NCBI GenBank assembly: GCA_020632975.1
Contig: JACKEL010000012.1
Coordinates: 82,852 to 146,851 of the forward strand
Reading direction: 5' to 3'
DNA length: 64,000 nt
Source of the DNA: Myxococcales bacterium
GTDB taxonomy: Bacteria > Myxococcota_C > UBA6777
Positions 10,125 to 58,519 of this stretch are shown in pieces. Within the stretch, counting starts at the first letter, position 1; the number at the start of each line of letters is the position of its first letter. The notes under the pieces are model-generated. The model was not told the origin of the DNA and ran no database searches. It was given only the letters and a program-made list of their open reading frames with translations. A program made the translations under genes and the position numbers.

Positions 10125-10135
10125 GAGCAGACACC

Positions 10136-10666: not shown

Positions 10667-10880
10667 TCTCCTCCCGTTTCTCCCCCATACCTTTCTTACA
10701 AGATACCCCTCTTTTCTTCCCAAACCCTTTCTTTCGGTCTGATCAGCTTCGGGCTTTTTGAGAAAGACGGCGTACTTTTTCTCTCGATTTCTGTTTGAAT
10801 GTTGATTTTTCAAAAGAAATAGTCTTTTCGTGAGGATATCACGCCTCTCTTCGACGAACTTCTTGTACATTTTTTTTACA

Positions 10881-11252: not shown

Positions 11253-11279
11253 TTGACATGGCATGAAACGTGTTATAAA
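11253..11279 (+). promoter_or_regulatory. Candidate sigma-70 promoter upstream of the response regulator
   Basis: TTGACA (11253-11258), 15-nt spacer, TATAAA (11274-11279). The spacer is short, so this is tentative. Confidence 0.3.
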
Positions 11280-11387
11280 AGTTTTTTTGAGGCTTTCAAG
11301 TGTGTAAGCATACTTCTGATCTGATATAAGAAGAAGAGTCTCTTTATAGATTCGTATCCTCTTGTTGGCATAAGAAAGGAGAACAAC

Positions 11388-15221: not shown

Positions 15222-15911
15222 ATGAAAAAAAGGTCATTGGTTTTTTTGTTTTTGTGGATAGGATTCCTCTTGCCGCATGGGTGGGCAGAAGCTTTCGACC
15301 TAGATTCCAAGTGGCCAAAAGATCCGAACCATCGAGTCCTTTCTTTTTCAGATACCGCTGCGATGTCGAGCTGTCCGGGCGAATCGCTTCTTTTTTTGGG
15401 GGACGGTCGTGTGCTTGTTTCTGACAATCGGAGTTGGTGCCAGCGCACGAATCACAAAGTAATGTCCGCGACCTACGAGCTTCGGTTTCCTGTGGCTCTA
15501 TTGAAAAAGCTTGTTCACAAGATCCTGGTTGAAAAAAGTTTTTTCTCTATCACTTCACAGGATATCCGCAAAGCGGTCTCTCATCGCGTCGCAGACGGTC
15601 ACGCGAGGCGGTTGGCCATCTCTTTGGTTGGTGTGAAACACAATGTCTACACAAACAACCTCTCACCGAGGGCTTATAAGAGGACGCCTAAAGTGTTGGA
15701 TATGTTGGTGATTTATAAAGTGCTGGAAAGGCTTCATCAGCATGTCGTTCGTGCGTGTCGCCGAGGAGAAAGAGCTTGCCAGCGCTGTCTTTATCGACGA
15801 ACAAACAAAGATAACGCGTCTCTCTTTGATCGAAAAAGCTGGAAGAAGCGTTGTTCTCGGGTGGGGCGTCAGAGAGACAATGCGAGACGCTATAAAAAGC
15901 GAGGTCTCTGA
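15222..15911 (+). CDS. Hypothetical secreted protein with basic C-terminus
   Basis: The signal peptide is MKKRSLVFLFLWIGFLLPHGWAEA. No domain was recognised. Confidence 0.55.
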   Translation: MKKRSLVFLFLWIGFLLPHGWAEAFDLDSKWPKDPNHRVLSFSDTAAMSSCPGESLLFLGDGRVLVSDNRSWCQRTNHKVMSATYELRFPVALLKKLVHKILVEKSFFSITSQDIRKAVSHRVADGHARRLAISLVGVKHNVYTNNLSPRAYKRTPKVLDMLVIYKVLERLHQHVVRACRRGERACQRCLYRRTNKDNASLFDRKSWKKRCSRVGRQRDNARRYKKRGL

Positions 15912-20148: not shown

Positions 20149-20547
20149 GCTCTTGCTCAACCTTTTATGTTCTCAAAGATCCACTCGTCACCGCAAGACC
20201 GATGTTCTTACTCTGGGTGCGAAGTTCTCTTCTTCTCTCCAAGGCTTTAACAGATTTTGTGCCCCGACGCAAGCAAAGTGTCTTGTTGTGACACACGACC
20301 CTTCTATGAGTGTACGCCGTGGATAGGGAGAGCGTGGGGTTGACCTCAGATCCGCCCTGCGTAAAAACATATCAAAGATGCGCGTTAGGACCTTTTTTGC
20401 TGTCCGAATGTTGAGGTGTTCAAACGAGTTGCTGCATATATGCAAATCAAGGAAATGCTTTTTCTTTTTCCTTTGTTAAGTTTGTATTTTATATCTGTGA
20501 CATAGGAAAAAGACAGAAAGTCCTTGTTAGATGCGGTCAAATTAGTG

Positions 20548-20576
20548 TTGACACCCTTTACAATCCAGACTATACA
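20548..20576 (+). promoter_or_regulatory. Near-consensus sigma-70 promoter, about 220 nt upstream of the HU gene
   Basis: TTGACA (20548-20553), 17-nt spacer, TATACA (20571-20576). Confidence 0.5.
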
Positions 20577-20804
20577 CCGAGATGTCTTTGACACGGGGCT
20601 GGTTTGAGGCTTGTGGCTCTGTGAAAAGCACAAGAAGGTTGGCGAAAAAGTAGTCTGCGATCTTCTGATCTTTGCGTTGTTTTGGTTTGTATTCTCCCAT
20701 ACAACAAGACAGAAGTTTTGATTTGGTCGAGACCATCGCATATCCCGATGGAGGGATACTGCTTGATGGGTCTTTATTCTTATATCGCGAGAGGAGAGAG
20801 TCTG

Positions 20805-21086
20805 ATGACGAAAGCTGAGTTGATCGACAAAGTGATCGGTGATGTGGGTTCTGACAAGCTGACCAAAAAACTGACCGAAGAGTTGATCGAAGCAACCTTC
20901 GAAGCGATGAAAGATGCACTTCTCAAAGAAGGTCGTTTTTCTTACCCCAGCTTCGGCACCTTCACTGTGAAAGAGCGCGCAACTCGTAAAGGCCGTAACC
21001 CCCAAACTGGCCAAGAAATCGAGATCCCTGCATCGAAAACAGTGTCTTTCAAGCCTGCTCCCAAGTTCAAAGAAAGCCTCAAGTAA
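20805..21086 (+). CDS. hup: HU-family nucleoid-associated DNA-binding protein
   Basis: MTKAELIDKV...SFGTFTVKERATRKGRNPQTGQEIEIPASKTVSFKPAPKFKESL. GAGGAGAG precedes the ATG at 20805. The upstream 41 codons in the ORF track are rejected. Confidence 0.9.
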   Translation: MTKAELIDKVIGDVGSDKLTKKLTEELIEATFEAMKDALLKEGRFSYPSFGTFTVKERATRKGRNPQTGQEIEIPASKTVSFKPAPKFKESLK

Positions 21087-27552: not shown

Positions 27553-28965
27553 ATGTGGGAGGCTTTTGTGAAGGACGCATCGCGGATGATGTCGGATTTC
27601 CCTGAAAGTTGGATCGCCGAAGTTCACGAACGGCCCTTGTGCCGCTATCTACAGATACAACTGCGCCATCACAAACAAGGCGCAGCATCCGCTCGGATGC
27701 GCTTGGGTCCTCATGTGGCCGAAGACGATGGTGTGGTCTCGGAAGGTGCGTTGACCACATTGGGAGGATGGACTGCGCAACTTGCGATCTTGAGTCTCGT
27801 GGGACAAGGGAGGGCGATCGTTCCCCTCGAACATCGGATAAGTTTGCTACAACCTGCGCGTTCTGGCGAAGTGATCGCGAAAGCGCGGGTCGAACACATG
27901 CGGGCACGGCTTGCGCATTGTAGTTATCGCATCGTCGATCAAGACGGCGAACTTGTCGCTGTGGGCGGCTTTTTGGCTGATGTGTTGCCAAGAGAGCAAG
28001 TCACAAGTCCGCGAGAACAGTTTGCCCGAGATACGGTGTCGCAAACGGAAGATGCTGCTTGGGCGGAAGATGGGGATGCTTCGTCGTTGGATATCTCGTC
28101 TGTTGCGGGCGAAAGAGAGCGCAAAGATACCTATGAGATCCCCAAGGTTGTTGCGCGTAAGAGCCCCACACTGGATGGCGACGCGACACTTCATCTTGCG
28201 GATGCTTCGATGGTACATGACGAACCCACCCACGCGGATCTTTCTCGCCTTCGCGATCGTGCCCTCAACAAGACGCTTGAGAGAAGTTCTCCGCTGTCTT
28301 CTCGTCCAGTCGAAGCAGGACTTCCTGATCTTGAAGAAGACGATGATTCCTTGGATGAAACAGTGCTTTCCTCTGTGGAGGCTTTCACAAAAAGCGCATC
28401 CTCTGGGCACAAACTCTCTTCTTCGCGTGTGCCTACGCTTGAGTGGAGCGCACCCAACAATCCCAATGCTTCTCACTCTGCTTCAAGTCTTCGTCAGACT
28501 GGGGCTTACGGTGCTCTTGAAGAAGATGACCTTCCTTCGATATCGACGCACGAGGCCGAAGACACAGAGAAGTTCGTACGACCTTTGAGCGTTAGCGAGG
28601 ATTACAACCCCCTCGATGATCACCAAGACACGGGGGAATTTGACGTTCCTCAACACCAAGATACAGATAAGTTTGTGTTGGGTTTTGTGGCAGAGGATAC
28701 AGAACAGTTTCCGCGCTCGGGGAGTCCCGATGATACGCAAAAGATGGTCGTTGAAGAAAAGCCTTTGGAGACAGAACGTCAACCACCTCCCGCATGGCTT
28801 CAAGGTGAATTGGGGCGTCTACCCAAAAAGTCCATCTCTCGGCCTTTACGCGACCATACGATGATCTCAAGGGTCGAAACCACGCGTCCCAAAGAACCAC
28901 CTGCCAGTCTTCCCATCGAAGCTGACTTTTTCGATGATGATCCCAAGCTCCCGGGGAAACGGTGA
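27553..28965 (+). CDS. Hotdog-fold (PaaI-thioesterase-like) N-terminal domain fused to a disordered acidic tail of about 320 aa
   Basis: The N-terminal approx. 150 aa read ...GVVSEGALTTLGGWTAQLAILS...EHRISLLQPARSGEVIAKARVEHMRARLAHCSYRIVDQDGELVAVG. The rest is D/E/S/P-rich with a recurring DT(x)(x)F motif. Confidence 0.7.
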   Translation: MWEAFVKDASRMMSDFPESWIAEVHERPLCRYLQIQLRHHKQGAASARMRLGPHVAEDDGVVSEGALTTLGGWTAQLAILSLVGQGRAIVPLEHRISLLQPARSGEVIAKARVEHMRARLAHCSYRIVDQDGELVAVGGFLADVLPREQVTSPREQFARDTVSQTEDAAWAEDGDASSLDISSVAGERERKDTYEIPKVVARKSPTLDGDATLHLADASMVHDEPTHADLSRLRDRALNKTLERSSPLSSRPVEAGLPDLEEDDDSLDETVLSSVEAFTKSASSGHKLSSSRVPTLEWSAPNNPNASHSASSLRQTGAYGALEEDDLPSISTHEAEDTEKFVRPLSVSEDYNPLDDHQDTGEFDVPQHQDTDKFVLGFVAEDTEQFPRSGSPDDTQKMVVEEKPLETERQPPPAWLQGELGRLPKKSISRPLRDHTMISRVETTRPKEPPASLPIEADFFDDDPKLPGKR

Positions 28966-44827: not shown

Positions 44828-46126
44828 ATGTCGATCTCTCTCAAACAAAGCCAAGCTTGGATGGAGCGTGCGCGTCACGTGATGCCTGGTGGTGTAAACT
44901 CTCCTGTTCGTGCGTTTCGTGCGGTAGGTGGGGACCCGCCGATGATCCGTCGTGCCAAAGGTGCGTATCTTTGGGACGAAGATGGTAACCAGTATATCGA
45001 CTATGTGGGTTCGTGGGGACCGATGATCCTTGGCCATGCGCATCCTGATGTCGTGGCGGTGATCCAGGCCGCAGCAGAAGAGGGGACCAGCTATGGAGCC
45101 CCCACTGTTCGAGAAGTCCTGATGGCCGAGAAGATCCGTGAGTTCTTTCCTGTGATGGAGATGACGCGCCTCGTCAACTCAGGAACAGAAGCGACGATGA
45201 GCGCGATTCGTTTGGCGCGTGCTGCGACCCAACGCGATCGTGTGATCAAGTTTTCTGGGTGCTATCATGGCCATGGTGACGCCTTTTTGATCGCCGCAGG
45301 TTCTGGGGCGACGACCTTTGGGGTTCCCAATAGCCCGGGTGTGACCGCAGCAACCGCAGCGTATACCCTGCTTGCTGAGTACAACGACCTTGGAGGCGTG
45401 GAAAAGCTTTTCCAAGAGTATCCCGACTCTATCGCAGCGATCATTGTCGAGCCTGTCCCTGGAAACATGGGCTTGATCAAGCCCGAAGCAGGATTCCTTG
45501 AAGGCCTGCGCTCGCTTTCGACACAACATGGGGCGTTGTTGATCTTTGATGAGGTGATGACAGGCTTTCGCGTCGCTCCTGGCGGAGTGACCGAGCTGAT
45601 GGGCGTGACCCCCGACTTGGTGACGCTCGGTAAGATCATCGGTGGTGGCCTTCCTGTGGGCGCTTACGGCGGTCGTGCAGATCTGATGAAGATGGTTGCT
45701 CCCAGTGGACCCGTGTACCAAGCAGGTACACTCTCAGGGAATCCCTTGGCCACAGCTGCGGGTCTTGCGACACTTGAGCGCCTTACGCCCGCGATGTACG
45801 CCAGTCTCGAAGAGTCTTGCAAACAACTCGAAGCAGGGATGCGCGCGGGACTTCAGGAACTTGGCCGCGACCTTTATATGACCCGCTATGGCTCGATGAT
45901 CTGCATGTTCTTCTCTGACACGCCCGTCAAGAATTACACGGACGCTCGTGCTTGTGATCTCCCCGCATTCAATCGTTACTTCCATGCGATGCTTGAGCGC
46001 GGTATCTACCTTCCTGCCGCGCAGTTCGAAGCACTGTTCGTCTCTGCTGCACACAGCCACGACGATATCGAACGCACGATCCAAGCCCACAAAGAGTCCC
46101 TTGCGATCGCCCTCCAGCCTGCCTAA
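44828..46126 (+). CDS. hemL: Glutamate-1-semialdehyde 2,1-aminomutase
   Basis: MPGGVNSPVRAF, DYVGSWGP, NSGTEATMSAIRLAR, FDEVMTGFR, LGKIIGGGLPVGAYGG. Confidence 0.95.
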   Translation: MSISLKQSQAWMERARHVMPGGVNSPVRAFRAVGGDPPMIRRAKGAYLWDEDGNQYIDYVGSWGPMILGHAHPDVVAVIQAAAEEGTSYGAPTVREVLMAEKIREFFPVMEMTRLVNSGTEATMSAIRLARAATQRDRVIKFSGCYHGHGDAFLIAAGSGATTFGVPNSPGVTAATAAYTLLAEYNDLGGVEKLFQEYPDSIAAIIVEPVPGNMGLIKPEAGFLEGLRSLSTQHGALLIFDEVMTGFRVAPGGVTELMGVTPDLVTLGKIIGGGLPVGAYGGRADLMKMVAPSGPVYQAGTLSGNPLATAAGLATLERLTPAMYASLEESCKQLEAGMRAGLQELGRDLYMTRYGSMICMFFSDTPVKNYTDARACDLPAFNRYFHAMLERGIYLPAAQFEALFVSAAHSHDDIERTIQAHKESLAIALQPA

Positions 46127-46275
46127 TCCTCTCGATACGCGCCTTTTTCGCGGCCAAGATCGCCTTCCTTTGTCCTTTCCTCTCTTTTCGCTTTTAACCC
46201 CAGAAGATCTCCTTGACAGTCTCTCTTGGCGTCTTTATATCTAAATTTATGTAGTGGGCTACGGAAATCTAGATA

Positions 46276-47322
46276 GTGAAAGAGATCAGGGAGTTTGCTT
46301 GCATGGATGAGAGAGAAGGGCGTTGGAGTCTGGGCGAGGAAGAGGACTTTATTGCGGAGTTGGGGCCTTTGGCTTTGGCCAATCGCCTGAAGCGTCTGAG
46401 TGATGTGATGATCACGTCTGGGCGAAAGATGTACAAAAGTCTGGGGATGGATATCGAGCCCAGTTGGTACCTGATCTTTTTGTTGTTAAAGCGCGATGGG
46501 GCGTTGGGGATCACAGAGATCGCGCAAAAGCTTCGTTATGCCCATCCATCCGTGGTGACGCTGGTTTCCAAGATGCTAAAGAAGCGATATCTCGAAGCGC
46601 ACAAAGACGAGCAAGACGGCAGAAAGCAGCTTGTGAGTCTGAGCGACAAAGCCAAAGCAGCTTTGCCCGCTTTCGAGCGTTTGTGGGCAGCGGGGGCCAA
46701 GGGGATCGAGGACGTCTTCGATCAAGGCGATGCAGCGCGCTTTATGGCATACTTGGGGCAGTTGGATCAGCGCTTTCAGAGAAAGGACTTTCACCAACGC
46801 ACGGTGGAGGCTTTGAAAGCGGAGGAGGATGCTCAAACAAGTCTCCCTCGCCTCGCCAAAAAATCCGATGAAGACGCCATCTGGGAGATCTTTTCGCAAG
46901 TGATCTCTACAGGTGAAACCTATGCCTTTTCCCCTCGTACCCCAAAGACGGCTCTTTCTGCGCTTTGGCTCGCCGCTTCGATGCGGACTTATGTGTACGA
47001 ACGCGAGGGCAAGATCGCGGGAACATACATCCTCAAACCCAACCAGCCCGATGCTGGGGGGCATATCGCAAATGCAGCTTACATGGTGCACCCAGCTTTT
47101 CAGGGCCAAGGGATCGGTCGTATGCTTTGTGAGCACTCTCTCCAAGAAGCCCGCTCTTGTGGTTACAGGGCCATGCAATTCAATCTTGTGGTAAGCACCA
47201 ACCTTGCGGCCGTTGCGCTGTGGCAACGTTGCGGCTTTCGCATCATCGGGACCACGCCTGACGGGTTCCAACACCCCACGCTTGGGCTTGTCGATACCTA
47301 CATCATGCACAGAAAACTATAG
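46276..47322 (+). CDS. MarR-type HTH fused to a GNAT acetyltransferase domain
   Basis: MarR part: LGITEIAQKLRYAHPSVVTLVSKMLKKRYLEAHKDEQDGRKQLVSLS. GNAT part: HPAFQGQGIGRMLCEHSL...NLAAVALWQRCGF. The start is GTG at 46276 or ATG at 46303. Confidence 0.75.
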   Translation: MKEIREFACMDEREGRWSLGEEEDFIAELGPLALANRLKRLSDVMITSGRKMYKSLGMDIEPSWYLIFLLLKRDGALGITEIAQKLRYAHPSVVTLVSKMLKKRYLEAHKDEQDGRKQLVSLSDKAKAALPAFERLWAAGAKGIEDVFDQGDAARFMAYLGQLDQRFQRKDFHQRTVEALKAEEDAQTSLPRLAKKSDEDAIWEIFSQVISTGETYAFSPRTPKTALSALWLAASMRTYVYEREGKIAGTYILKPNQPDAGGHIANAAYMVHPAFQGQGIGRMLCEHSLQEARSCGYRAMQFNLVVSTNLAAVALWQRCGFRIIGTTPDGFQHPTLGLVDTYIMHRKL

Positions 47323-47455
47323 CCTTGTCCCTCTGGATATCTTTGTTTCTTCGAGAGGATCGTCGTGGCATCCCTCTTTGTGCTGCAACGATTCGATGGT
47401 TTCTCTTTTTTCTATGTAGCTGACTACGTAAATGCAAAGAGAAGGAGTCTTGCGG

Positions 47456-47920
47456 ATGACATCACAGATCGAGATTACGACGTTTCTTCCCGAGTATGCG
47501 GACGGATTTGCACATCTGAACTACCAATGGATCGAGAAGCACTTTGAGGTCGAACCCTACGACCGGAAGGTCTTGGATGCGCCCGAGGAGCAGATCCTTG
47601 CGAAAGGAGGAGAGATCTTTTTCGCGGTACATGAAGGAAAGCCTGTTGGGACGGTGGCTTTGCTTCCTCTCGACGATGACTCTTTTGAGCTTACCAAGAT
47701 GGCCGTTGCACCAAGCTTTCGTGGTAAGCAGCTTGGAAAGCGCTTGATGTTACGTGCCATCGAGCACGCCACCAAGGTTGGAAAAAAACACCTGATCATC
47801 CTCTCCAACACGCTTCTTGTTCCTGCGATCAACCTGTATATCGACTTTGGGTTTCGACCTGTGGTGATGGAAAATGAAGCTTACAGCAGAGCCAATATCA
47901 AGATGGCAAAGAAATTATGA
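47456..47920 (+). CDS. GNAT-family N-acetyltransferase
   Basis: AAGGAG precedes the ATG at 47456. Motifs: VAPSFRGKQLGKRLMLRAIEHA and AINLYIDFGF. Confidence 0.8.
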   Translation: MTSQIEITTFLPEYADGFAHLNYQWIEKHFEVEPYDRKVLDAPEEQILAKGGEIFFAVHEGKPVGTVALLPLDDDSFELTKMAVAPSFRGKQLGKRLMLRAIEHATKVGKKHLIILSNTLLVPAINLYIDFGFRPVVMENEAYSRANIKMAKKL

Positions 47921-47984
47921 TGTAAAATATGATCTTATTTCTGTACTATTGTTAAGATTGAAAAAAATATAAAATAGAAAAAGT

Positions 47985-48029
47985 ATGTAAGAAAAACCTA
48001 TGGAGAGATTTTTATAATTTTTCTTACAT
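47985..48029. repeat. 12-bp inverted repeat in the AT-rich left border of the low-GC island
   Basis: atgtaagaaaaa (47985-47996) pairs with tttttcttacat (48018-48029), with a 21-nt loop. Confidence 0.7.
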
Positions 48030-48199
48030 CAAAATGTTTGCATGGGTCGACAGATTCAAGTGGTTGATTTTCTTTGCAAACCCCCGCCTGCGCGATTGAG
48101 CCATCTTTCAGTGCACTCGATCTTGCTTCTTTCTTGGAGGATAGCAAGTTATGTTTGGGTGTGTTGCTTGGGTTCTCAGGATGGTTTGGGGTGGAGTAG

Positions 48200-48604
48200 A
48201 TGGATCGTTTGGCGTTAGGAATTCAGCTTTTGTCTGCGTGTCAACAAGGAGAGCTTGAGGAGGTCAAAAAGCTTCTTCAAACGGGGGCAGACGTCAACTT
48301 CACAGACGTCTTGCATGGTTATCATCCTCTTGATCATGCTATTCGTATCCGCTCTCTGGCGTTGGTGATGTTGCTTGTCGAATCTGGGGCGGACGTCAAT
48401 CGAGCTTCATCGCGGGTGGGTGGGCTTTTTCCCCTTCAGTTTGCAGTGTATCTTGGCGAAATTAGGATTGTAGACTTTCTCTTACGGAAAGGTGCTACGC
48501 TGTGTGATGATCTGTTTTCTTTTGTGGAGGAGGGATTTCGAGATGGGGCTTTCGAAAATCCTGAAGATGTCGAGACAATGGAACAATTGATTCGAAATTT
48601 ATAA
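48200..48604 (+). CDS. Ankyrin-repeat protein (134 aa, about 3 repeats)
   Basis: GGAG precedes the ATG. Repeat motifs: LLSACQQGELEEVKKLLQTGADVN, HPLDHAIRIRSLALVMLLVESGADVN, FPLQFAVYLGEIRIVDFLLRKGA. Confidence 0.75.
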   Translation: MDRLALGIQLLSACQQGELEEVKKLLQTGADVNFTDVLHGYHPLDHAIRIRSLALVMLLVESGADVNRASSRVGGLFPLQFAVYLGEIRIVDFLLRKGATLCDDLFSFVEEGFRDGAFENPEDVETMEQLIRNL

Positions 48605-49060
48605 CCTGTTCTCCCTCTCTTTTTCCACCATCACCAGCGTCTTTCTGCGAAAGATTGCCTTTCGGAGAGATCTTGAGAAGTGCAAAGGAGTGCATCTCCA
48701 GCCCTGAGGCTGATTTTCGTCTACATCGTGCGTGTTGCCTTATCGATAGCCTTGGAAACATGCCGTCTTCTACTGACAGAATTTTTCGAGTTGGCAATCA
48801 GGATATGTCAGAAAGCGATCGGAAGTTTCGTTTGTGTTTGGGAAGTCGCAACAAAGATACCCATCTTGATGCCTTTGTTGAGGTTGGCTTGGAATTGCGC
48901 TTTCTACCATATTGCAAGCTGGAAATACGATCTTTGGATATTCGTGGAGGTTCTGTATTTCTTGTAAGAGTTTGTCTTTTTAGTGAGATTGTCTTCGCGA
49001 CTTGGATTTACGCGATGGAGTTTTGCTGCAGCATCTGCCCTTTGGTGTATGGAGATCATC

Positions 49061-49789
49061 ATGAGTCTACACACGGTATTTCAGATCTTGAAGCAATTTG
49101 TTCTTTCTGGAGAGGTTGAGCATCAAGGTGTTATTGCGCGAGCGACGAAGGTCATCCTCCAAGAGATCGAGCGTGCAGTTCGTTTTGTTCGAAGAGGGCT
49201 CTCTCCTGACGAGATCTCGGAGGCAACATCAGAGATCTTTGTGATCTTGTATAGAAGGTGTGTCTTTTTTGATTTTTCGGAAGACATGGCTGTGAAGTCT
49301 TATATTCGTTTGACGGTGCGAGGATTTTTTGCAGATCAAGCACGCAAGGGGTCATTGGTTTATTATGTTGAGTTTCGCTCAGAAGATCATCTTTGGAAAG
49401 AGCTTGATTATCCAGATACAGAACAGCTTTCAGCTGAAGAGTTACTTTCGAGAGAAGAGTCTTTAAAGATTTTTGAGAAAAAGAAGAGGGAATTTATCTC
49501 TTTGTATCTTCGTTTAAATTCTGTAAAGTCTCCCTTGTTGGTAAAACAAGAGATCAAAGACATGGAGTCTTTGCATCTAACGAAAAAGTTAAATACAGAC
49601 GATCTGTGCGCTTGTTATGGAGAAGAAAAAAACACACTTCACAAACGTCATAGCCGACGAAGACAATCGTTGCATCGATTTTTAAAAGAGCAAAGAGGGC
49701 AGATGTCCGAAGAAGCTTTCTATTTGTTAGATTGTTGGTTATTGGCTTTGTACGGGAAACGCAAGGAGCAATTATCCGCTAAAAAGTGA
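49061..49789 (+). CDS. Hypothetical protein, possibly a highly divergent ECF-type sigma-70 family factor
   Basis: GGAG precedes the ATG at 49061. EATSEIFVILYRRCVFFDFSEDMAVKSYIRLTVRGFFADQARK resembles region 2. NTLHKRHSRRRQSLHRFLKE resembles the end of region 4. This is by-eye recognition only. Confidence 0.45.
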   Translation: MSLHTVFQILKQFVLSGEVEHQGVIARATKVILQEIERAVRFVRRGLSPDEISEATSEIFVILYRRCVFFDFSEDMAVKSYIRLTVRGFFADQARKGSLVYYVEFRSEDHLWKELDYPDTEQLSAEELLSREESLKIFEKKKREFISLYLRLNSVKSPLLVKQEIKDMESLHLTKKLNTDDLCACYGEEKNTLHKRHSRRRQSLHRFLKEQRGQMSEEAFYLLDCWLLALYGKRKEQLSAKK

Positions 49790-49909
49790 TGTGTCAGCAT
49801 GTCTACTTTTTTTACGTTTACTATTTCGTGGATGGCGACGGGCAAAGGCGAATACTTTTTCGTTGTCTGTTCGGGACGGGTTTTCATTGCGTTTAAAAAG
49901 GATAAAATC

Positions 49910-51028
49910 ATGTTTACAGCTCAAGCTTTTTTTCCCTCTTTGGATCTAGAAGTCATACACGCTCCTGTTCTTTTTCAAACGCTGATTTGTTTGCCCCAAT
50001 CACAGGTGTTTTTCGAAGATTTACAGGCAGAGGGATGGAGTGATTTTAAGTTGTCTTCATGGCTTGATGTATTGAATCGTTCTGATAAAAAACAAGAATA
50101 TTTTCGAAACGAAATGGAAAGGATATCTGGCCTCTCACTTTTTGTCGATCGCACAACACAGGGGTGGTTATTTTTCGCGGTTTCGATAAGTCAAAAGCCT
50201 ATCTTTTTCTCGGCACCAGAGGAGGAAAGAGCTGTTCCTCTTCTGGCTTTACATCATGATAAAAAAGACGCTTTTTTGTTTTTTCTTAAAGAAGGTCAAG
50301 CCGTTTATCTTCATGATCAAGATGGTATGGGCCTCGTTTGTTTTGTGGATACTGGTGTCTTTGCTTGTTTTTGTGTTTCGTCAAAAACAAGTTCTTTCGG
50401 GGATGTCGAGCCTTTGTTTTGCAATGAGCTTGATGGATATCTCGCAGAACTTCGCGAGGAAGATCCCGACTTGGTGGAGTGGTTAGAAGAAGATCTTTCT
50501 GTTGGTGGGGATTGGTCGCTTGTTACTGTTTTGGGAGCCGCGATGCGTTTACGTTTCCCAGAAAAAGGCGGTGCCGCGAAGGCTTTGGTACAAAGACTGT
50601 TAAAAGAGACGCCGATCAAGCCGCATCTTTCTGTGTGTTGGGCGAAAACATGGAGTCCTGCGCAACGTAAAAACATCGAAGGACTTTTTCTCGTAAAATT
50701 AGGGATTCTTTACAGTGAGTTTAAGGACTATGCCTTGCACATCAGTGAGGACTTCGCAGAGGACAAGTTTTCCGTGCGGGTTGTGTACAAGCTTTTGTTA
50801 CGGCGTGATGAATTAGATAGCGTTGCATTGTTGTTGCGGGTTCACGGCGATTTAAAGGATGAATTGGTAAAGAAACTTAGGCTCATTGATGAGTTAGGAA
50901 AAAGTATGGTGTACGACTTTCCTCAGTCCACGTTTCTTACGAACTCTGCCCGCTTGAAACGAATCCTTTCATCTCATCCGCGTGCTTGGTGGGCTTTTCC
51001 AGCAGCAGAACAGATCTTGTGTTCATGA
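49910..51028 (+). CDS. Hypothetical protein (372 aa from ATG 49910; 409 aa if ATG 49799), no recognisable domain
   Basis: A long ORF in the low-GC island. AAGGA lies 9 nt upstream of 49910. It is F/L/K/D-rich with no signal peptide. Confidence 0.55.
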   Translation: MFTAQAFFPSLDLEVIHAPVLFQTLICLPQSQVFFEDLQAEGWSDFKLSSWLDVLNRSDKKQEYFRNEMERISGLSLFVDRTTQGWLFFAVSISQKPIFFSAPEEERAVPLLALHHDKKDAFLFFLKEGQAVYLHDQDGMGLVCFVDTGVFACFCVSSKTSSFGDVEPLFCNELDGYLAELREEDPDLVEWLEEDLSVGGDWSLVTVLGAAMRLRFPEKGGAAKALVQRLLKETPIKPHLSVCWAKTWSPAQRKNIEGLFLVKLGILYSEFKDYALHISEDFAEDKFSVRVVYKLLLRRDELDSVALLLRVHGDLKDELVKKLRLIDELGKSMVYDFPQSTFLTNSARLKRILSSHPRAWWAFPAAEQILCS

Positions 51029-51366
51029 GAGGGAGGGATGAATACGGCCTTCTTTTGTCGGGGCTGTTTGCTTGGGGTCTAGGAGGGCGGTAGGCTTTGT
51101 CTTTTTGCTGAACTCTGGGATATCGAGTTCGACGTTCCTTGTGGAGTTCGAGGTTGCTGCTGTGTCGGGTCTCTTTCGCGATGTTTGGGTCTGGATGGAT
51201 TTTCGCGAATTTTTTGCGGGGAGGCATGGGCTGCGCTAGAGTGCGGGATATCGAGCCGATCTGTTGTTTGCGCCGCATCTTCGGAGTCTAGCTGATTGCG
51301 CTGAAGATGTCGCTGAGCGGTGGCGGCGTGTATTTCTACCTACTCTGTGTCTTGGAGGAGAGTCCG

Positions 51367-52398
51367 ATGATTCGCAAGAATCGTTCAATGATGCGTCGTG
51401 CAACCCCTAGTCCTATGGTTATTATGGCCGGTGGTGCTTTGTTTATGGCTCTTGTTGCTCTGGTCTTTTGGCCCCGCAACACGCGTCCCAAAGCACTTCA
51501 AGGTAGTCTGAACTTACAACGGGCTTCTGTGGCTGCGCCCTCGCAACCTGTTCACGCTCCCTCACAAGCCCAAGAGCCCGCTGCTGCCGAGCCCGTCTCT
51601 GCGAATGGTCTGAAGACTTTTCAGACGAAGATCAACGGTCCTTTGTCCCGCAGTTTCCAACGCGGTGGACTTGAGCGAAAGCAAGCGACTTTTCTCAGCG
51701 CGTTGGCTGCTCGCTTGTTGATCTGGCGCCTCGATCTTCGCCGTGAACTTCGTCGTGGCGACAAGATCGAGTTGCTTTATCGCCCCGTTGATTCGCAAAG
51801 TATGTTTGAGATCATCGCGATGCGCTACACCAGCACCAAACACAACCGCAGCTACGCTTTCTATCGTTACCAAGAGCCCGGTCGTCGCTTTGCTGCTTAC
51901 TATGACGCAGAAGGCCGTGAGATCGAACAAAAGCTACGCAACTCGCCCCTTCGTGAGTATGAGCAAGTGACCTCGATCCTCAAGATGCGACCCAAGCATA
52001 AAGGCGTGGACTTTAAAGCGCCCGTGGGTACGAAGCTTTACCTTCCTTTCCGCGCTCGCGTTCTCCGTACCACTTGGAACTTCCGTTACAATGGTAACTG
52101 TCTTGAGGTGGTTCCTCTCCACAAACCCAACGCTCGGATCATGTTCCTTCACTTGCAAAAGTTGTCCTCGAAGGTGAAAGCTGGCCGCGTTCTTCCCGCA
52201 GGAACGATCCTCGGTTATGTCGGAAACACCGGACGTTCAACAGCTCCTCACCTGCATTACCAGATCATGACGCGCCGTGGAAAAGTGATCGATCCTTTCC
52301 GCTTCCACGAGACTTATATGCGTACCCTTCCTGAAGGGCAGTTGGCTTCTTTCCAACAACATCGCCGTCAACTGGATCTTCAGTTCCCCAATCGCTGA
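51367..52398 (+). CDS. M23-family metallopeptidase, membrane anchored
   Basis: GGAGGAG precedes the ATG at 51367. The TM segment is MVIMAGGALFMALVALVFW. Motifs: HKGVDFKAPVGTKLY...FLHLQK...GYVGNTGRSTAPHLHYQI. Confidence 0.85.
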   Translation: MIRKNRSMMRRATPSPMVIMAGGALFMALVALVFWPRNTRPKALQGSLNLQRASVAAPSQPVHAPSQAQEPAAAEPVSANGLKTFQTKINGPLSRSFQRGGLERKQATFLSALAARLLIWRLDLRRELRRGDKIELLYRPVDSQSMFEIIAMRYTSTKHNRSYAFYRYQEPGRRFAAYYDAEGREIEQKLRNSPLREYEQVTSILKMRPKHKGVDFKAPVGTKLYLPFRARVLRTTWNFRYNGNCLEVVPLHKPNARIMFLHLQKLSSKVKAGRVLPAGTILGYVGNTGRSTAPHLHYQIMTRRGKVIDPFRFHETYMRTLPEGQLASFQQHRRQLDLQFPNR

Positions 52399-52609: not shown

Positions 52610-53998
52610 TCAAGCTTGGTCGGGGTAGAGGTTATCGAAGCGTGTGTATTCGTGGAAGAAGCGGACGCGGGCGGTACCGATTGGACCGTTCCGTTGTTTT
52701 CCGATGATGATCTCAGCGACGCCGCGATCTTCGGTTTCGGGGTTGTAGACTTCGTCGCGATAGACGAAGACGATCATGTCGGCGTCTTGCTCGATCGCTC
52801 CTGATTCACGAAGGTCCGAAGGCATGGGGCGTTTGTCGGGGCGACGTTCGAGCGAGCGGTTGAGCTGGGAGAGGGCAAGGATAGGGACGTGGAGTTCTTT
52901 GGCGAGGGCTTTGAGGCCGCGCGAGATGTCAGAGATCTCGCGTTCACGGGAGTCTCCGCCTTTTCCGTCACCTTTCATAAGCTGAAGGTAGTCAATCATG
53001 ATCATGCCAAGGCCGTGTTCCATCTTGAGCCTTCGGCATTTGGAACGCATCTCGAGGAGGCTGGAGTTGGCGCCATCGTCGATGAAGATCTTGGACTTTG
53101 CGAGATCGGTGGCGGCTTGCATGAGGCGTGGGATGTCGCCGTCTTTCATGTTCCCCGTACGAAGGCGCGAAGCGTCGACGCGGCCTTGAGAACAGAGCAG
53201 ACGCATAACGAGCTGTTCTTTACTCATCTCCAAGGAGAAGACGACGACGGGCACGCCGTGCATGACAGCGGCGTTGGCGACCATGTTCATCGCGAGACTT
53301 GTCTTGCCCATGGAGGGGCGTCCCGCGAGGATCACGAGGTCGGATGGTTGGAGTCCTGAAGACATCTTGTCGAACTCTTCGAAGCCCGTGGGGACGCCTG
53401 TAACGAGTTCTTTGCGCTCGTAGAGTTTTTCGATGGTCTTGAAGGCGTCTTTCACGATCTCGCTAACGGGCGCCATATCTTTGTTTTTTTCGCCTGTTTC
53501 GCGTATCTCGAAGAAACGTTTTTCTGCGCTATCGAGGAATTGCGCGACGTTTTCTTGTTCTTCGTAGGCTTCGCTGGCGATCTCCGTACTGACGCCGATG
53601 ATCTGGCGAAGGACAGACTTCTCTTTGATGATCTGCCCATAGTGCTCGATGTGTGCGGCGGAAGGGATCATATCGACAAGTTCACCGAGGTAGGCGATAC
53701 CACCGGCCTTATCGAGTTGTCCTTTGACTTTGAGTTTGTTTGCGACGGAGATGATATCGAGAGGGTTGCTTTCGGCCTCTTGTTCAGTGATGGCTTCAAA
53801 GATCCACTGATGTCGTTCGAGGTAGAAGTCCTTGGGTTTGAGGATCCCAACGACACTGTGGATGAGTTCACTAAAGAGCATGATCGAGCCGAGAACAGCG
53901 CGTTCTGCTTCGATATTTTGTGGGGGGACTCGGCGTTGCAGTTCGAAGACTGTATTTTCTTTTTCGCGAGAGTCGGTGGCATTGCCGCGTCTTTGCAT
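52610..53998 (-). CDS. dnaB: Replicative DNA helicase
   Basis: PPQNIEAERAVLGSIML, LAGRPSMGKTSLAMN (Walker A), MIMIDYLQLM, ISRGLKALAKELHVPILALSQLNRSLE, IIGKQRNGP. Confidence 0.95.
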   Translation of the reverse strand: MQRRGNATDSREKENTVFELQRRVPPQNIEAERAVLGSIMLFSELIHSVVGILKPKDFYLERHQWIFEAITEQEAESNPLDIISVANKLKVKGQLDKAGGIAYLGELVDMIPSAAHIEHYGQIIKEKSVLRQIIGVSTEIASEAYEEQENVAQFLDSAEKRFFEIRETGEKNKDMAPVSEIVKDAFKTIEKLYERKELVTGVPTGFEEFDKMSSGLQPSDLVILAGRPSMGKTSLAMNMVANAAVMHGVPVVVFSLEMSKEQLVMRLLCSQGRVDASRLRTGNMKDGDIPRLMQAATDLAKSKIFIDDGANSSLLEMRSKCRRLKMEHGLGMIMIDYLQLMKGDGKGGDSREREISDISRGLKALAKELHVPILALSQLNRSLERRPDKRPMPSDLRESGAIEQDADMIVFVYRDEVYNPETEDRGVAEIIIGKQRNGPIGTARVRFFHEYTRFDNLYPDQA

Positions 53999-54731: not shown

Positions 54732-55250
54732 TTATTCGTCCATATCATCTTCGCGACCACGACGGCCACGACCACCGCGATCACCACGATCTCCACCGCG
54801 ATCACCACGATCTCCGCGATCACCACGGTCTCCGCGATCGCCACGGCCACCATCACGATCACCACGACGTCCACGGCCTTGGCCACGTTCGCCTTCGTCA
54901 CGGTTGGTGGTTTTGAACTCAACGTCTTTGCTCATCTCTTCTTCAGTGATGAGATCAGCAACTTTGACGCTGTGGTATTTCATGACGTCTTCAGAGATAC
55001 GGCACTGGTGTTCAACTTCACCGACGAGGCCGGGAAGTCCTGCAAAGGTCACATGGAAGAAGAAACCTTTGTGTTGTTTTTGTACGGGATAAGCGGTCTT
55101 GCGCAGACCCCAGTTATCAACAACAAGGACTTTGCCTTTGTTGTTGATAAGTTCGAAGAGACGATCGTTGGTTTTTTTGATCACATCTTCGGTGAGGTTG
55201 GGGCGCAGCAAATAGATAGTTTCATACTTACGGTATTTCGGCGTTTCCAA
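54732..55250 (-). CDS. rpsF: 30S ribosomal protein S6 with an RGD/RGG-repeat C-terminal extension of about 60 aa
   Basis: RKYETIYLLRPNLTEDV...VDNWGLRKTAYPVQK...GFFFHVTF. The TTG start (55248-55250) lies 5 nt after GAAGGAGG. The tail reads GRRGDRDGGRGDRGDRGDRGDRGDRGGDRGDRGGRGRRGREDDMDE. Confidence 0.85.
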   Translation of the reverse strand: METPKYRKYETIYLLRPNLTEDVIKKTNDRLFELINNKGKVLVVDNWGLRKTAYPVQKQHKGFFFHVTFAGLPGLVGEVEHQCRISEDVMKYHSVKVADLITEEEMSKDVEFKTTNRDEGERGQGRGRRGDRDGGRGDRGDRGDRGDRGDRGGDRGDRGGRGRRGREDDMDE

Positions 55251-55443
55251 AGGAGCCTCCTTCTGGACTGAGCGGCCCGCGCTTCTGTGGGCGGGCAAGG
55301 AGTGAGTGCGTGCATCGTGAAAAGCAACGCATGTAATGTTTCGCCTGCGTTGTGCGGGCGAGAAAGCGAAGAGACAAAAAGAAGCCCTGCTAGGAAACAT
55401 CCCAGCAGGACTTGGGAGATCTCAAAGAGATCAAAAAGGGAGC

Positions 55444-57777
55444 TTAGCGGCTCGCGGGCTTGCTCGCGGGAGCAGCAGCGGGCTTGCTTACGGGAGCAGC
55501 GGGTTTCACTTCACGACGGGGAGCAGGTTTCGCTGCTTCACGGCGAGGCGCGGGCTTGTGGGTGCGCATGGCGGGCTTGGCTGCCTCACGACGGGGCGCG
55601 GGAGCAGCGGGGCGCGCAGCAGGCGTTGCAGTACGTGCAGCAGGTGCTTTTGCTTTGGGCTGACCTTTTGCAGAGTAGTGCATTTTTGCGAGCGCGGGAG
55701 CCGAAACCAAGGCGATAACGGTGATCAACTTGATCAAGATGTTGAGTGCGGGACCTGCGGTATCTTTGAAGGGGTCACCAACGGTGTCACCAGTGACAGC
55801 GGCTTTGTGGGGATCAGAGCCTTTTCCGCCGTGGTGACCTTTTTCGATGTACTTCTTCGCGTTGTCCCAAGCGCCACCAGCGTTGGACATGAAGAGTGCA
55901 ACGAGAACACCCGAAACGGTGACGCCTGCGAGGAGACCACCAAGAGCTTCCATGCTCCACACACCAACGATAACGGGTGCGAGAACAGCGAGAAGACCAG
56001 GAGCAACCATCTTGCGGATAGAAGCTTGGGTGGAGATGTCAACGCACTTTGCGTATTCAGCGACAGCACCGGGCTTACCCTCTTTGAGGCCGGGGATCTC
56101 ACGGAATTGGCGGCGAACTTCTTCGATCATGGCTTGTGCAGCTTCACCAACAGCGTCCATCGCGAGCGAGGAGAAGAGGAAGGGCAACATACCACCGATC
56201 AAGAGACCTGCCATGACGGAGGTGTCTGCGATGTTGAGGTCGAGGGGAGCGCCAGTGATCTTTTGGGTCACGGTACGGAAAGCCGCGAAGAGTGCGAGTG
56301 CGGTAAGTGCCGCAGAGCCGATCGCGAAACCTTTACCAATCGCCGCAGTGGTGTTACCGACAGCGTCGAGTTTGTCAGTACGTTCACGGACGTGTGCACC
56401 AAGTTCTGCCATCTCAGCAATACCACCAGCGTTGTCAGCGATGGGACCGTAAGCGTCAACCGCAAGTTGGATACCTGTAGTGGAAAGCATACCAAGAGCA
56501 GCGATCGCGATACCGTAGAGGCCAGCAGCGTTGTAGGACACGATGATCGCGATAACGATCACGAGGATGGGTGCTGCGGTGGACTGCATACCAACAGAAA
56601 GACCAGAGATGATGTTGGTTGCGGGGCCAGTTTCACTTTGCTTTGCGATCTTTTTGACGAAACCGTAGTCAAAAGAGGTGTAAAGCTCAGAGAGGAAGCC
56701 GATCGCGGTACCAGCCACAAGACCTGTGATCACGGAGAAGAAGACACCCCAGCGGGTGAAGTCAAAGCCCATGAGGTTGAGTTTTGCGGGGAGGAAGGTA
56801 CAGAGGACGAGTGTCGCAACACCCGTGCTCACCGCAGCAACCAAGGTTCCGAGGGTCAACGCCCATTGGGGGTTACCATCTTCAGTGGTTTTCACGAAGC
56901 GGGTTCCGCCGATCGACATCAAGATGCCGACGCCAGCGATGGCCAAGGGAAGAAGAACGGGGTAGAGCAACACGCGGTCGCTTTTTTGACCGGGGATGGT
57001 GATCGACGCAGCGAGAACCATCGCACCGATGATCGAACCAACATAAGATTCGAAGAGGTCCGCACCCATACCAGCAACGTCACCAACGTTGTCACCAACG
57101 TTATCAGCGATGGTTGCGGGGTTACGTGGGTCGTCTTCGGGGATGCCAGCTTCGACTTTACCGACGAGGTCAGCACCAACGTCAGCGGCTTTGGTATAGA
57201 TACCACCACCAACGCGAGCAAACAGAGCGATCGACGATGCACCGAGCGAGAAGCCGGAAACGACGGAAAGAAGGAGTTGCATACCGTTTGCGCTTTGGTA
57301 GTCGAAGACGACAGCAAAGAGACCGGTGAGCAAGCTGATTCCGACGAGACCCAAACCAGCCACGGACATACCCATGACGGTTCCACCTGCAAACGCAACT
57401 TCGAGTGCGTTGTTGAGGCTGTCGCGAGCGCGGGCAGCGGTACGGACGTTGGCTTTGGTTGCCACGGTCATCCCTGCATAGCCTGCACCAAAGGAGCAGA
57501 GTGCGCCAAACAAGAAAGAGACGGAGACCCAAGCGCTGGTATCGCCGCCGCCAAAGTTGGCCCACAAAAGGATCAAGAAGACTGCAAGGACGAACACGAG
57601 CAGAACTTGTGCTTCACGGCGGAGGAAGGCTTTCGCACCGTTCGAGATGTGTTCAGCGATCTCTTTCATGCGATCCGTTCCAGCGTCTTGTTGCTCAATC
57701 CACTGGCTACGGCCCCATGCAAAATAAAGGGCGGCAAACCCCAGCACAATACAGGCCAATATCAAAATCCAAAACAT
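55444..57777 (-). CDS. hppA: Membrane-bound proton/sodium-translocating pyrophosphatase with a Pro/Ala/Lys-rich tail of about 79 aa
   Basis: [68 protein letters not shown]. The tail is [17 protein letters not shown]...[11 protein letters not shown](x2)...SKPASR. Confidence 0.95.
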
Positions 57778-57943
57778 CGATCACTCCTGTTGATTGTTTG
57801 TTTCCATGCTCGTCGCTGGTTTCCCAGGCACGCCCTTCGGTGGGGAAGGGCGTCGTGTGAGTTTGTGACGCTACATTGGTATCTGTTTGGTGGAGAGTCC
57901 GGGAGGTTCGGACATCCGCCCAAGGGAAGCGAGATTTGGTCGC

Positions 57944-58519
57944 TTAGGGGGCTTTTTTTCGGTTCCACAGGTTCATGGCCTTGAGCAAACCTTCTCGCAG
58001 ACAACTTTCGAGCATCTCGGCGCTTTGTTCGATCAGCGCGGGGAGTTCGGTTTTTTGTTCTGTAGAGAAGGGGCTGAGCACAAAGTCCGCAACGGCGAGA
58101 TCTTCGTGATCAGGGCGCCCAATGCCAAAGCGCAGGCGAGTGTACTTGGGTGAGCCGAGTTCTGCGCTGATCGAGCGCAACCCACGGTGCCCACCGTCGC
58201 CTCCGCCTTGTTTGAGTCGGAGTTGGCCGAAGGGCAAGTCCAGCTCATCGTGGACCACCAGTACATGTTCTGGTGTGACCTGATAAAAAGAACAGATAGC
58301 AGCGACCGCTTGACCGCTCAGGTTCATGTAGGTTTGGGGTTGTACGAGCAGGGCGGGTTCGTTGTCAAGCGTTGTTTGTGAAATCAGTGCTTGAAAGCGA
58401 GACTTGGCTGCAGGAGCATGCCAACGTTGCCCCAATGCTTCGACCACTTGAAAGCCGATATTGTGGCGATCATTGGCGTAGCGTGTTCCTGGATTGCCCA
58501 ATCCGACGATCACCCACAT
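57944..58519 (-). CDS. pth: Peptidyl-tRNA hydrolase
   Basis: MWVIVGLGNPGTRYANDRHNIGF...VVHDELDLPFGQLRLK.GGG.GGHRGLRSI. It starts at the internal ATG (58517-58519). Confidence 0.9.
   Translation of the reverse strand: MWVIVGLGNPGTRYANDRHNIGFQVVEALGQRWHAPAAKSRFQALISQTTLDNEPALLVQPQTYMNLSGQAVAAICSFYQVTPEHVLVVHDELDLPFGQLRLKQGGGDGGHRGLRSISAELGSPKYTRLRFGIGRPDHEDLAVADFVLSPFSTEQKTELPALIEQSAEMLESCLREGLLKAMNLWNRKKAP

Follow-up and report, generated by a model that had tools for sequence, protein, structure and literature searches.

A horizontally acquired low-GC islet in a Myxococcales chromosome carries a candidate solo sigma/anti-sigma pair with relatives in CRISPR-Lon loci

In this study, we have explored a low-GC islet (positions 47921-51028) in a 64,000-nt stretch of the chromosome of a Myxococcales bacterium (GenBank assembly GCA_020632975.1, contig JACKEL010000012.1; hereafter the window, whose positions are used throughout). 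The islet is horizontally acquired DNA with three genes on the forward strand, which encode an ankyrin-repeat protein, a 242-amino-acid (aa) protein resembling sigma factors of the extracytoplasmic function (ECF) class, and a 372-aa protein that is the conserved partner of this sigma-like protein. Based on our results, we consider it reasonably probable that the islet carries a solo sigma/anti-sigma switch of the type of CalpS and CalpT, the sigma factor and anti-sigma factor of a pathway of type III CRISPR (clustered regularly interspaced short palindromic repeats) signalling that runs through the Lon protease CalpL. The direct results behind this reading are the insertion, the family relations, the ECF-like match, the pairing, the adjacency of a CalpL gene in one relative (locus L051), a promoter-like motif and a missing tail of the partner protein. 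What is new here is the sigma/partner pair itself, its link to a CRISPR-Lon protease in relatives, the candidate promoter, and the tail-less variant found in the window.

The insertion of the islet is shown by comparison with related genomes. When species-representative genomes were scanned with the flanking M23 peptidase, 49 loci were returned (L001-L049). The complete neighbourhood hemD-hemL-M23-dnaB(-)-rplI(-) is preserved in three of them, L001 and L002 (aa identity of about 80-85%) and L003, a more distant outgroup (about 50-65%). In these three loci, hemL and the M23 gene are separated by about 190-370 bp with no gene between them, and tblastn of the window's five intervening genes against the 49 related loci gave no match. 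The segment absent from this junction corresponds to positions 46127-51170 of the window, about 5 kb, with a right end that is uncertain within 51030-51190. It is flanked on the left by hemL (glutamate-1-semialdehyde aminomutase; 44828-46126, +), 83% identical at the aa level to L001 and L002 and 65% to L003, and on the right by the M23 peptidase gene (51367-52398, +; Pfam Peptidase_M23 4.9e-18), 79-80% identical to L001 and L002. DNA homology to these two loci ends at 46111-46114 and resumes at about 51352. Because 51170-51366 aligns with the relatives' hemL-M23 spacer (the retained host spacer being 51171-51366, e.g. GATTTTCGCGAATTTTTTGCGGGG...TAGAGTGCG), the foreign DNA ends at about 51030-51170 and not at 51366. 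Outgroup L003 also lacks the segment, which makes a single gain the more parsimonious history compared with two precise losses. The remainder of the window is ordinary chromosome, with genes for an aconitase, a Ser/Thr kinase, an XPB-like helicase and a SpoIID-like protein. An earlier reading of the letters alone (the sequence-only reading) had proposed a three-gene island at 47921-51366 between housekeeping-type genes. The low-GC part, its three genes and the nature of the flanks all stand, but the insertion starts at about 46127, ends before 51366 and holds a MarR-GNAT and a GNAT gene as well.

The same reading had pointed to a sharp drop in G+C, which sliding windows confirmed. Positions 47921-51028 have 42.6% G+C against 53.4% in the remaining window and form its lowest stretch; the 1-kb steps across 48001-51000 give 0.452, 0.409 and 0.437 against about 0.52-0.57 over most of the window, and the 3-kb window 47501-50500 (0.429; mean 0.527, standard deviation 0.026, z about -3.8) is the minimum of the 64 kb. 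The 60-nt lines that it had sampled were recounted at 23/60, 23/60 and 39/60 as given, with a fourth, at 47101, having 34/60 rather than 33/60. Its shift towards A/T-ending codons was found again as well: G+C at third codon positions (GC3) is 0.42, 0.40 and 0.39 in the ankyrin, sigma and partner genes, against about 0.50-0.66 (about 0.58) in host genes. The onset of the low-GC part is an AT-rich spacer (47921-48199) with, as had been noticed, a very AT-rich border (20% G+C over 47921-48040) and a perfect 12-bp inverted repeat (47985-47996/48019-48030), between the arms of which stands a TATAAT hexamer (48012-48017). The hairpin of this repeat is AU-rich and not a canonical terminator (fold z-score -1.3). 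In agreement with the earlier reading, a renewed search found no integrase or transposase at the insertion, no tRNA gene within 8 kb of the islet (the sole one is at 59463), and no flanking direct or inverted repeats beyond short chance-level matches. Neither did we find homologues of the sigma or partner genes in phages, plasmids or viral contigs (tblastn against plasmids and phages; IMG/VR scan). The islet is therefore foreign by its composition and by its absence from the syntenic site, without marks of mobility; in the three relatives the trio is absent from this junction, and the proposal of a horizontally acquired module holds.

The insertion is made of two compositional halves, the MarR-GNAT and GNAT genes, which are host-like, and then the low-GC part. 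As GNAT genes of host-like G+C lie inside the insertion, its history is at least two-layered. A Logan contig of 5,255 bp (L050), assembled from independent reads and 99.7% identical to the window, covers only 46205-51459, and that assembly therefore breaks near both insertion borders. It differs from the window at 14 positions, nine of them at 46244-46267; the low-GC part accounts for three differences, all intergenic, and the three low-GC genes show no substitution. In a second genome, the partner protein differs by one residue.

The 242-aa protein (49061-49789, +) is very probably an ECF-type sigma factor, divergent in sequence and CalpS-like by its context. Searches with the sigma and partner proteins in Pfam, NCBIfam, PADLOC and PHROGs gave nothing but Sigma70_r2 on the sigma protein, at E 0.03 (Sigma70_r4 gave no match), and word-indexed searches of 5.8 billion proteins with either one returned self-hits only. 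Four full-length relatives of the sigma protein (241-248 aa, 26-29% identical, E 1e-16 to 2.5e-5) came to light when 1.84 billion representatives were searched exhaustively with HMMER. A profile search added a fifth, and all five are 22-29% identical to the window protein. The early searches missed the pair, whose sequences have too few exact words in common. The family is marked by three conserved segments, an N-terminal MPLHLALQIL, NT[LI][QH]KRHSRLR, and WL..LDGKPG.KYD near the C-terminus. Scans of JGI metagenome contigs and of IMG/VR with the alignments of both families gave no further loci.

For comparison with known sigma factors, we used an ECF profile of six sequences (E. coli RpoE, B. 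subtilis SigW, M. tuberculosis SigE, a SigH chimera and two myxobacterial ECF sigma factors), in which SigW, SigE and the SigH chimera were checked against PDB alignments; it replaced an earlier profile made from the fetched loci alone, which with two ECF sigma factors was too shallow. When the six-member family was compared with this profile by hhalign, the match extended over 140 collinear columns, from region 2.1 through the helix-turn-helix of region 4.2 (Prob 87%, P 3.7e-6, score 45.1), while the reversed alignment scored 11.5 and the 200 column and 200 block shuffles stayed at or below 25.2. The sigma2 part of the match (query 49 to about 100) is found at the profile-profile level and stays below the threshold of the curated hidden Markov model. 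In the sigma4 part, l..eEl.....NTlqkRHsRlR..l is aligned on ls..Ei......gTV.sRi.RgR.al, which places the most conserved segment of the family, NT[LI][QH]KRHSRLR, on sigma4.2, the -35-recognition helix. The ECF-like sigma candidate of the sequence-only reading is thus supported at the profile-profile level, and with it the CalpS-like element of the window. Core RNA polymerase binding and initiation by this protein are putative, with indirect support from a conserved TGTCAGAA-N15-CGTT motif that is described below. Both the sigma and the partner open reading frames (ORFs) have the pattern GC1>GC3>GC2 (G+C at codon positions 1, 2 and 3), and their 242 and 372 codons have been kept open where the estimated rate of stop codons is about 6% per codon.

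The sigma gene does not stand alone. In all six loci where we found the family, the gene next downstream is a homologue of the partner: 570 aa in L051 (29% identity over 415 aligned positions, E 1e-41), 361 aa in L054 (35%, over the window protein's C-terminal half), and genes cut by contig ends in L055 (32%), L059 (31%) and L060 (31%, E 4e-39). The sequence-only reading had seen no confident homology for the two proteins; with this conserved pairing in five other loci, they are not unrelated unknowns. The third gene, described there as an orphan of 372-409 aa, is real and encodes 372 aa (49910-51028, +), but with these homologues it is no orphan. We place its start at 49910 because the homologues align from Met-38 of the longest frame (MFTAQAFFPSL against MFTLPSLFPDL) and because 49799-49909 has a non-coding pattern of codon-position G+C (GC1<GC2<GC3); the 409-aa and 398-aa starts were rejected. 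Since the pair is conserved and lies in an operon with a CalpL homologue in one relative, its function is not wholly unknown.

The partner family has a modular architecture. A helical core of about 200 residues (...LLLRRDEL.SV.LLLR...RLQRIL...P.AWWA[YF]PAA..IL) is common to all members; an N-terminal domain of about 175 residues precedes it in the window, L051, L059 and L060 and is absent from L054; and in L051 and L054 the core is followed by a proline-rich linker and then by about 85 residues that form a conserved C-terminal domain with LRVEW at its end. The window protein ends two codons past AWWA[YF]PAA..IL and so has neither the linker nor the C-terminal domain. It has no conserved transmembrane segment, and sequence and profile searches of the PDB with the partner family and with the partner's C-terminal region gave nothing meaningful, and CalpT was not among the matches. 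Both window ORFs are intact, with every family-invariant residue kept. From its position and architecture, the 372-aa protein is a putative anti-sigma factor of the 242-aa protein, in the position of CalpT, and we hold this role to be fairly probable.

A promoter-like motif accompanies the pair. The sequence TGTCAGAA-N15-CGTT follows the stop codon of the sigma gene in all six loci: TGTCAG[AC]A lies within 3-31 nt of the stop, and CGT stands exactly 17 nt after TGTCAG in five of them, L054 having TGT. In the window, this site (P2, TGTCAGCATGTCTACTTTTTTTACGT; 49792-49817, +) begins 3 nt past the stop codon of the sigma gene and precedes the partner start by 93 nt, and a further one (P1, TGTCAGAAAGCGATCGGAAGTTTCGT; 48806-48831, +) lies upstream of the sigma gene, within a gap of 457 bp. 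A count of the exact pattern over the window gives three, with 0.54 expected, and two of the three, P1 and P2, are in the islet. When a position weight matrix was built from the five other loci only, 48806 ranked first and 49792 third among about 128,000 window positions; the fourth-best match is the left arm of the spacer's inverted repeat (TGTAAGAA, 47986), without the CGT. With a seven-site matrix, 1.36 million background positions (L001-L049) reached a maximum of 14.0 and never 15, although these loci are mostly more GC-rich, which favours the absence of matches. The matrix found additional sites in the relatives, on the minus strand (L051 3260 and 11491; L055 3184; L060 1857). With scores of 18.7-21.0, sites lie upstream of an operon of a 100-aa gene and cas3c in L051 and L055 or of cas3c itself in L060, and a site scoring 17.7 lies upstream of a 234-aa/CARF-RelE operon in L051; every one of these sites faces its gene, at a distance of about 100-130 nt. 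Overall, CGT is kept at the fixed spacing in 10 of 11 sites, and all sites point to the downstream gene, at about 85-255 nt from its start codon. ECF promoters usually consist of a -35-like element and, after a fixed spacer, a -10-like element that contains CGT (PMC11506125). We infer that TGTCAGAA-N15-CGTT is the cognate promoter of this sigma family and that P1 is an autoregulatory promoter of the sigma gene. A scan for sigma-70 promoters and terminators gave nothing above shuffle expectation, and an Rfam scan of the islet gave no match.

The genes around the relatives' pairs connect the family to CRISPR signalling. In the Calp pathway, a type III CRISPR complex makes cyclic tetra-adenylate, which activates the SAVED-Lon protease CalpL, and CalpL cuts the anti-sigma factor CalpT in a poorly structured region (bioRxiv 10.1101/2024.05.08.593097, PMC11229360, 10.1101/2025.07.01.662501; hereafter the Calp papers). 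The N-terminal CalpT fragment (about 24 kDa), holding CalpS, a sigma factor of ECF-like type, is then degraded and CalpS is freed, while the C-terminal fragment of 10-11 kDa contacts CalpL (Calp papers, PMC11229360). In L051, the order is cas3c (-), a 100-aa gene (-), a 396-aa gene, the sigma gene, the 570-aa partner and a 515-aa SAVED-Lon gene that overlaps the partner stop codon by 4 bp. The 515-aa protein is a homologue of CalpL (PADLOC SAVED4-SAVED_LON_TM 1.2e-93 and CRISPR-Lon 7e-77; PDB 7QDA, CalpL, 1.3e-47), the Cas3c is recognised by PADLOC at 1e-182, and a CARF-RelE protein of the Cami1 type (2.8e-117) comes next on the other strand. L055 and L060 share the layout Cas3c/100-aa/390-aa/sigma/partner up to their contig ends; L054 stops 80 bp past the partner gene. 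Two of the sigma relatives sit in the metagenome-assembled genomes (MAGs) that supplied L001 and L002, on other contigs. CalpT, with its sigma-binding N-terminal part, its unstructured region of cleavage and its C-terminal fragment, has a layout that matches the core, linker and roughly 85-residue domain of the L051 and L054 partners. The motif sites of these loci suggest, as far as sequence can tell, a regulon that links CalpL signalling to the type I-C Cas3 and to a Cami1-type effector.

In the window itself, the 64 kb hold no cas, CARF or SAVED gene, and no type III CRISPR association was found there. The SAVED-Lon protease seen in L051 has no counterpart, and neither the cleavable linker of CalpT nor its CalpL-contacting C-terminal fragment is present; tblastn of the partner tail, the L051 CalpL and the CARF protein against the window left no trace. 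A profile search of 5.8 billion proteins gave no second family member attributable to the source organism; there is weak evidence that this organism is without a canonical Calp-type locus. The window pair likely descends from a Calp-type cassette. The G+C of the pair is 0.41-0.43 in the window against 0.50-0.57 in L051 and L055, and this, together with an identity of 22-29% to all other members, those of its closest relatives included, implies that the window pair is no recent copy of the relatives' locus. It presumably represents a deep branch from a donor of lower G+C.

Some observations on the genes around the pairs may be added. The sigma gene lies at 4630-5373 in L051, 10001-10747 in L054, 3429-4169 in L055 and 3715-4446 in L060, and in every locus its G+C is about 3-10 points below that of the measured neighbours, even beside a host-like partner gene. 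Just 5' of cas3c, L051, L055 and L060 always encode a small protein of about 100 aa (2820-3122, 2744-3046 and 1903-2178, respectively, all on the minus strand), with 83-99% identity between loci, and just upstream of the sigma gene the same three loci always have a gene of 390-396 aa that matches DUF3800 faintly.

Taken together, these data allow a model to be proposed. The 242-aa sigma factor would direct RNA polymerase to TGTCAGAA-N15-CGTT promoters, and the 372-aa partner would sequester it as an anti-sigma factor through the conserved core. With P1 ahead of its own gene, the sigma factor would be under positive autoregulation, and with P2 between the two genes the synthesis of the partner would depend on free sigma, giving a negative feedback. 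In the relatives, by analogy with CalpT, the partner would be co-transcribed with CalpL, which would dock on its tail and cut it, thereby releasing the sigma factor. As the window has neither the tail nor a nearby CalpL, its switch would be uncoupled from cyclic-oligoadenylate signalling; on the same analogy, the window partner resembles the fragment that would remain after CalpL cleavage. The level of such a switch could be set by general proteases or by another input, possibly the ankyrin protein, or the switch could be locked or decaying; we see an even chance that the pair is still functional. A bolder version would be that the sigma/partner family as a whole is the output arm of a Calp-type CRISPR pathway and that the window holds a rewired, "pre-cleaved" variant rather than a broken one. 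This version is tentative and, taken as a whole, rather doubtful. If true, it would mean that type III signalling switches on type I interference and a second effector through a promoter shared by the partner-calpL, cas3 and CARF-RelE operons, and that in the window the anti-sigma factor ends at the protease cut, the sigma gene has gained an autoregulatory promoter, the ankyrin gene was co-acquired, and the switch answers to a new input.

A number of points weigh against the solo switch. The family amounts to six loci, and adjacency to CalpL is seen directly in one independent locus (L051), L055 and L060 being cut by contig ends. The Pfam Sigma70_r2 score is 14.5 bits against a cut-off of 24, and the window protein is alone in the family in matching it at all; a profile search of the PDB with the sigma family retrieved no sigma factor, and single-sequence AlphaFold2 models of the sigma and partner proteins were unusable (pLDDT, the predicted local distance difference test score, of 36 and 44). 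The partner showed no similarity to the 108-residue N-terminal fragment of Sulfurihydrogenibium CalpT (SsCalpT), so that "CalpT-like" refers to position and architecture only. The leader from P1 to the downstream sigma start, at 255 nt, is longer than those of the other sites, and a TGTC-N8-GAC(A) palindrome in four of the P2 sites would also suit an operator. The ankyrin gene is beside the sigma/partner pair in none of the five other loci. Finally, the anti-sigma activity, the promoter function, any ankyrin role and every other functional step of the model are read from sequence.

Several other explanations compete with the solo switch for these data. The islet could be a decaying remnant, i.e. 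a piece of a defence island from which CalpL and the partner gene's 3' part were lost at or after transfer and whose genes are non-functional and drifting. The window without CalpL, SAVED, CARF or cas genes in its 64 kb, a partner truncated exactly before the linker, the 457-bp gap without a convincing gene and the lack of remaining mobility genes are all in line with decay. This is nevertheless unlikely, as the ORFs and all their family-invariant residues are intact, both promoter-like motifs are intact too, and the low-GC part is the same in the independent assembly but for its three intergenic differences, the second genome adding one partner residue. With no remnant of the tail detectable downstream of the partner, its end looks clean and not eroded. 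The pair could also act in trans, as a second and divergent output channel of a Calp/type III CRISPR system elsewhere in the genome. In favour of such a role, the MAGs of L001 and L002 carry the canonical locus, with a family pair beside cas3c and, in one of the two, CalpL, and the promoter motif is common to the family. We find it improbable: the window partner is without the tail that, by analogy, contacts the protease, the 5.8 billion proteins hold no second family member attributable to the organism, and the window sigma factor is just 22-29% identical to the relatives' copies.

It is quite improbable that the two proteins are no sigma/anti-sigma pair at all and, for example, that the 242-aa protein is a helix-turn-helix repressor for which the motif serves as operator and that the 372-aa protein is an unrelated effector. 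Pfam and the PDB recognise no sigma factor here, and the palindromic character of four P2 sites would fit a repressor, but the collinear sigma2 and sigma4 match is far outside the shuffle controls, CGT keeps its spacing in 10 of 11 sites and the sites are all oriented to the downstream gene, about 85-255 nt from its start. As for a palindromic operator, that interpretation of the motif was tried and set aside, since only one clade keeps the palindrome half; it fits less well than a promoter. Very improbable, finally, is an ancestral, merely AT-rich locus without any acquisition. It could appeal to further, weaker low-GC patches with family-less ORFs elsewhere in the window, to the sigma gene being the lowest in G+C of its neighbourhood at every locus, and to the dinucleotide signature of the low-GC region, which is ordinary and host-like. 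It would, however, need two precise independent losses, given that the segment is missing from three relatives including the outgroup.

The solo switch may also be compared with systems that are already described. The likeness to CalpL-CalpT-CalpS consists in an ECF-like sigma factor encoded beside a soluble partner, in the L051 pair lying in an operon with a true CalpL homologue and beside a Cami1-type CARF-RelE, and in the relatives' partner core being followed, as in CalpT, by a linker and a small C-terminal domain. The window differs in having no CalpL, no type III CRISPR genes, no partner linker and no C-terminal domain. Neither window protein is similar to PDB entries, the partner is dissimilar to the SsCalpT N-terminal fragment, and CalpT has about 30 kDa whereas the partner family ranges over 361-570 aa with an optional, beta-rich N-terminal domain. 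A CRISPR-linked protease also releases a sigma factor in the type III-E Craspase, which cuts the inhibitor Csx30 and frees CASP-sigma (RpoE); unlike in our model, the protease is a TPR-CHAT protein bound to the effector complex, and no cyclic-nucleotide step is involved; the likeness is one of description (PMC10028731). In Myxococcus xanthus, the regulon of the ECF sigma factor DdvS is a defence island (a cyclic oligonucleotide-based antiphage signalling system, CBASS, and a type III-B CRISPR system) with sigma-dependent promoters before the defence operons, and so resembles the present case as a myxobacterial ECF sigma factor with promoters ahead of defence operons (PMC11506125). Its anti-sigma factor DdvA is a transmembrane protein with a periplasmic TPR-CHAT module (PMC11506125), unlike the window partner with no conserved transmembrane segment, and DdvS/DdvA gave no match in the PDB profile search with the sigma family. 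With RpoE-RseA-type pairs, the system shares sigma2 and sigma4, a partner gene immediately downstream, CGT in the -10-like element and a predicted autoregulation; it differs from them in falling below Pfam thresholds, in its large soluble partner without a recognisable anti-sigma domain, and in a promoter internal to the pair. In MzaA of the MZA anti-phage system (NCBIfam NF041931), ankyrin repeats are likewise tied to a sigma-70 family protein in a defence setting. There, however, ankyrin and sigma are one protein, and here they are two genes 457 bp apart. The ankyrin protein matches the MzaA model at E 0.12, as any ankyrin repeat would, the sigma protein has no NCBIfam match, and no MzaB-E genes are among the neighbours.

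We know of no report on the genes activated by CalpS-type sigma factors. The Calp papers (10.1101/2024.05.08.593097, PMC11229360, 10.1101/2025.07.01.662501) name none. The relatives' loci now yield a candidate regulon, made of the partner-calpL operon, cas3c and the CARF-RelE effector, which would be reached through one short conserved promoter, and the question of what CRISPR-protease signalling turns on becomes directly testable in Myxococcota. The window pair, naturally uncoupled, may show how a switch of this kind can move from its CRISPR context to an ordinary chromosomal site. The work also illustrates that apparent orphans in word searches of 5.8 billion sequences can be placed by one exhaustive HMMER search combined with a comparison of neighbourhoods.

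The first gene of the islet (48200-48604, +) encodes, as the sequence-only reading had recognised, an ankyrin protein, of 134 aa with about three repeats (Pfam Ank 6.4e-13, 48.6 bits for a cut-off of 21.1; Ank_2 1.2e-10, 42.3 bits for a cut-off of 27.3). Its codon-position G+C (GC1/2/3) is 0.64/0.33/0.42, and the protein is a singleton at 90% identity. The idea that the trio forms one module is backed by the shared composition and orientation of the three genes, but at the other loci the pair goes without an ankyrin gene. The ankyrin gene of the window may have arrived with the pair; an adaptor role would be speculation. The 457-bp gap between the ankyrin and sigma genes contains no convincing gene, and orf154 (48655-49119) was rejected as one, having no homologue and a flat, weak codon-position G+C, with P1 lying within it.

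Upstream of the low-GC part, the insertion encodes a MarR-GNAT fusion of 348 aa (46276-47322, +; Pfam MarR_2 1.2e-7 and Acetyltransf_1 1.4e-18; G+C 0.54, GC3 0.62) and a GNAT acetyltransferase of 162 aa (47432-47920, +; Acetyltransf_1 1.5e-16; G+C 0.49, GC3 0.58). Just 5' of the fusion gene stands a palindrome (46241-46272) preceded by TTGACA-N17-TATATC. L050 has a perfect 14-bp inverted repeat there and the window copy is degraded; the palindrome is probably a fast-evolving MarR operator.

Elsewhere in the window, the weaker low-GC patches are at 20385-21014 (-), 10019-10870 (-), 11175-12029 (-) and 15222-15911 (+), with G+C of 0.44-0.51 and ORFs of 209-284 aa without a Pfam family; the codon-position G+C of the first (0.41/0.43/0.48) is atypical and it may not be coding. 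For three large ORFs, at 440-3814 (-), 55336-57984 (+) and 27553-28965 (+), with 1124, 882 and 470 aa, Pfam gave no family at E 1e-5. DnaB carries an intein in L001 (3975-6629, 884 aa, with an insert the size of a homing endonuclease) and a mini-intein in L002 (3796-5667, 623 aa), while the window DnaB (52610-53998, 462 aa) has none at the same site. Finally, an ORF resembling ribosomal protein S6 (54732-55400, -) has a long C-terminal tail of (G/D/R) repeats (…GDRGDRGDRGDRGG…), which is present in L002 too.

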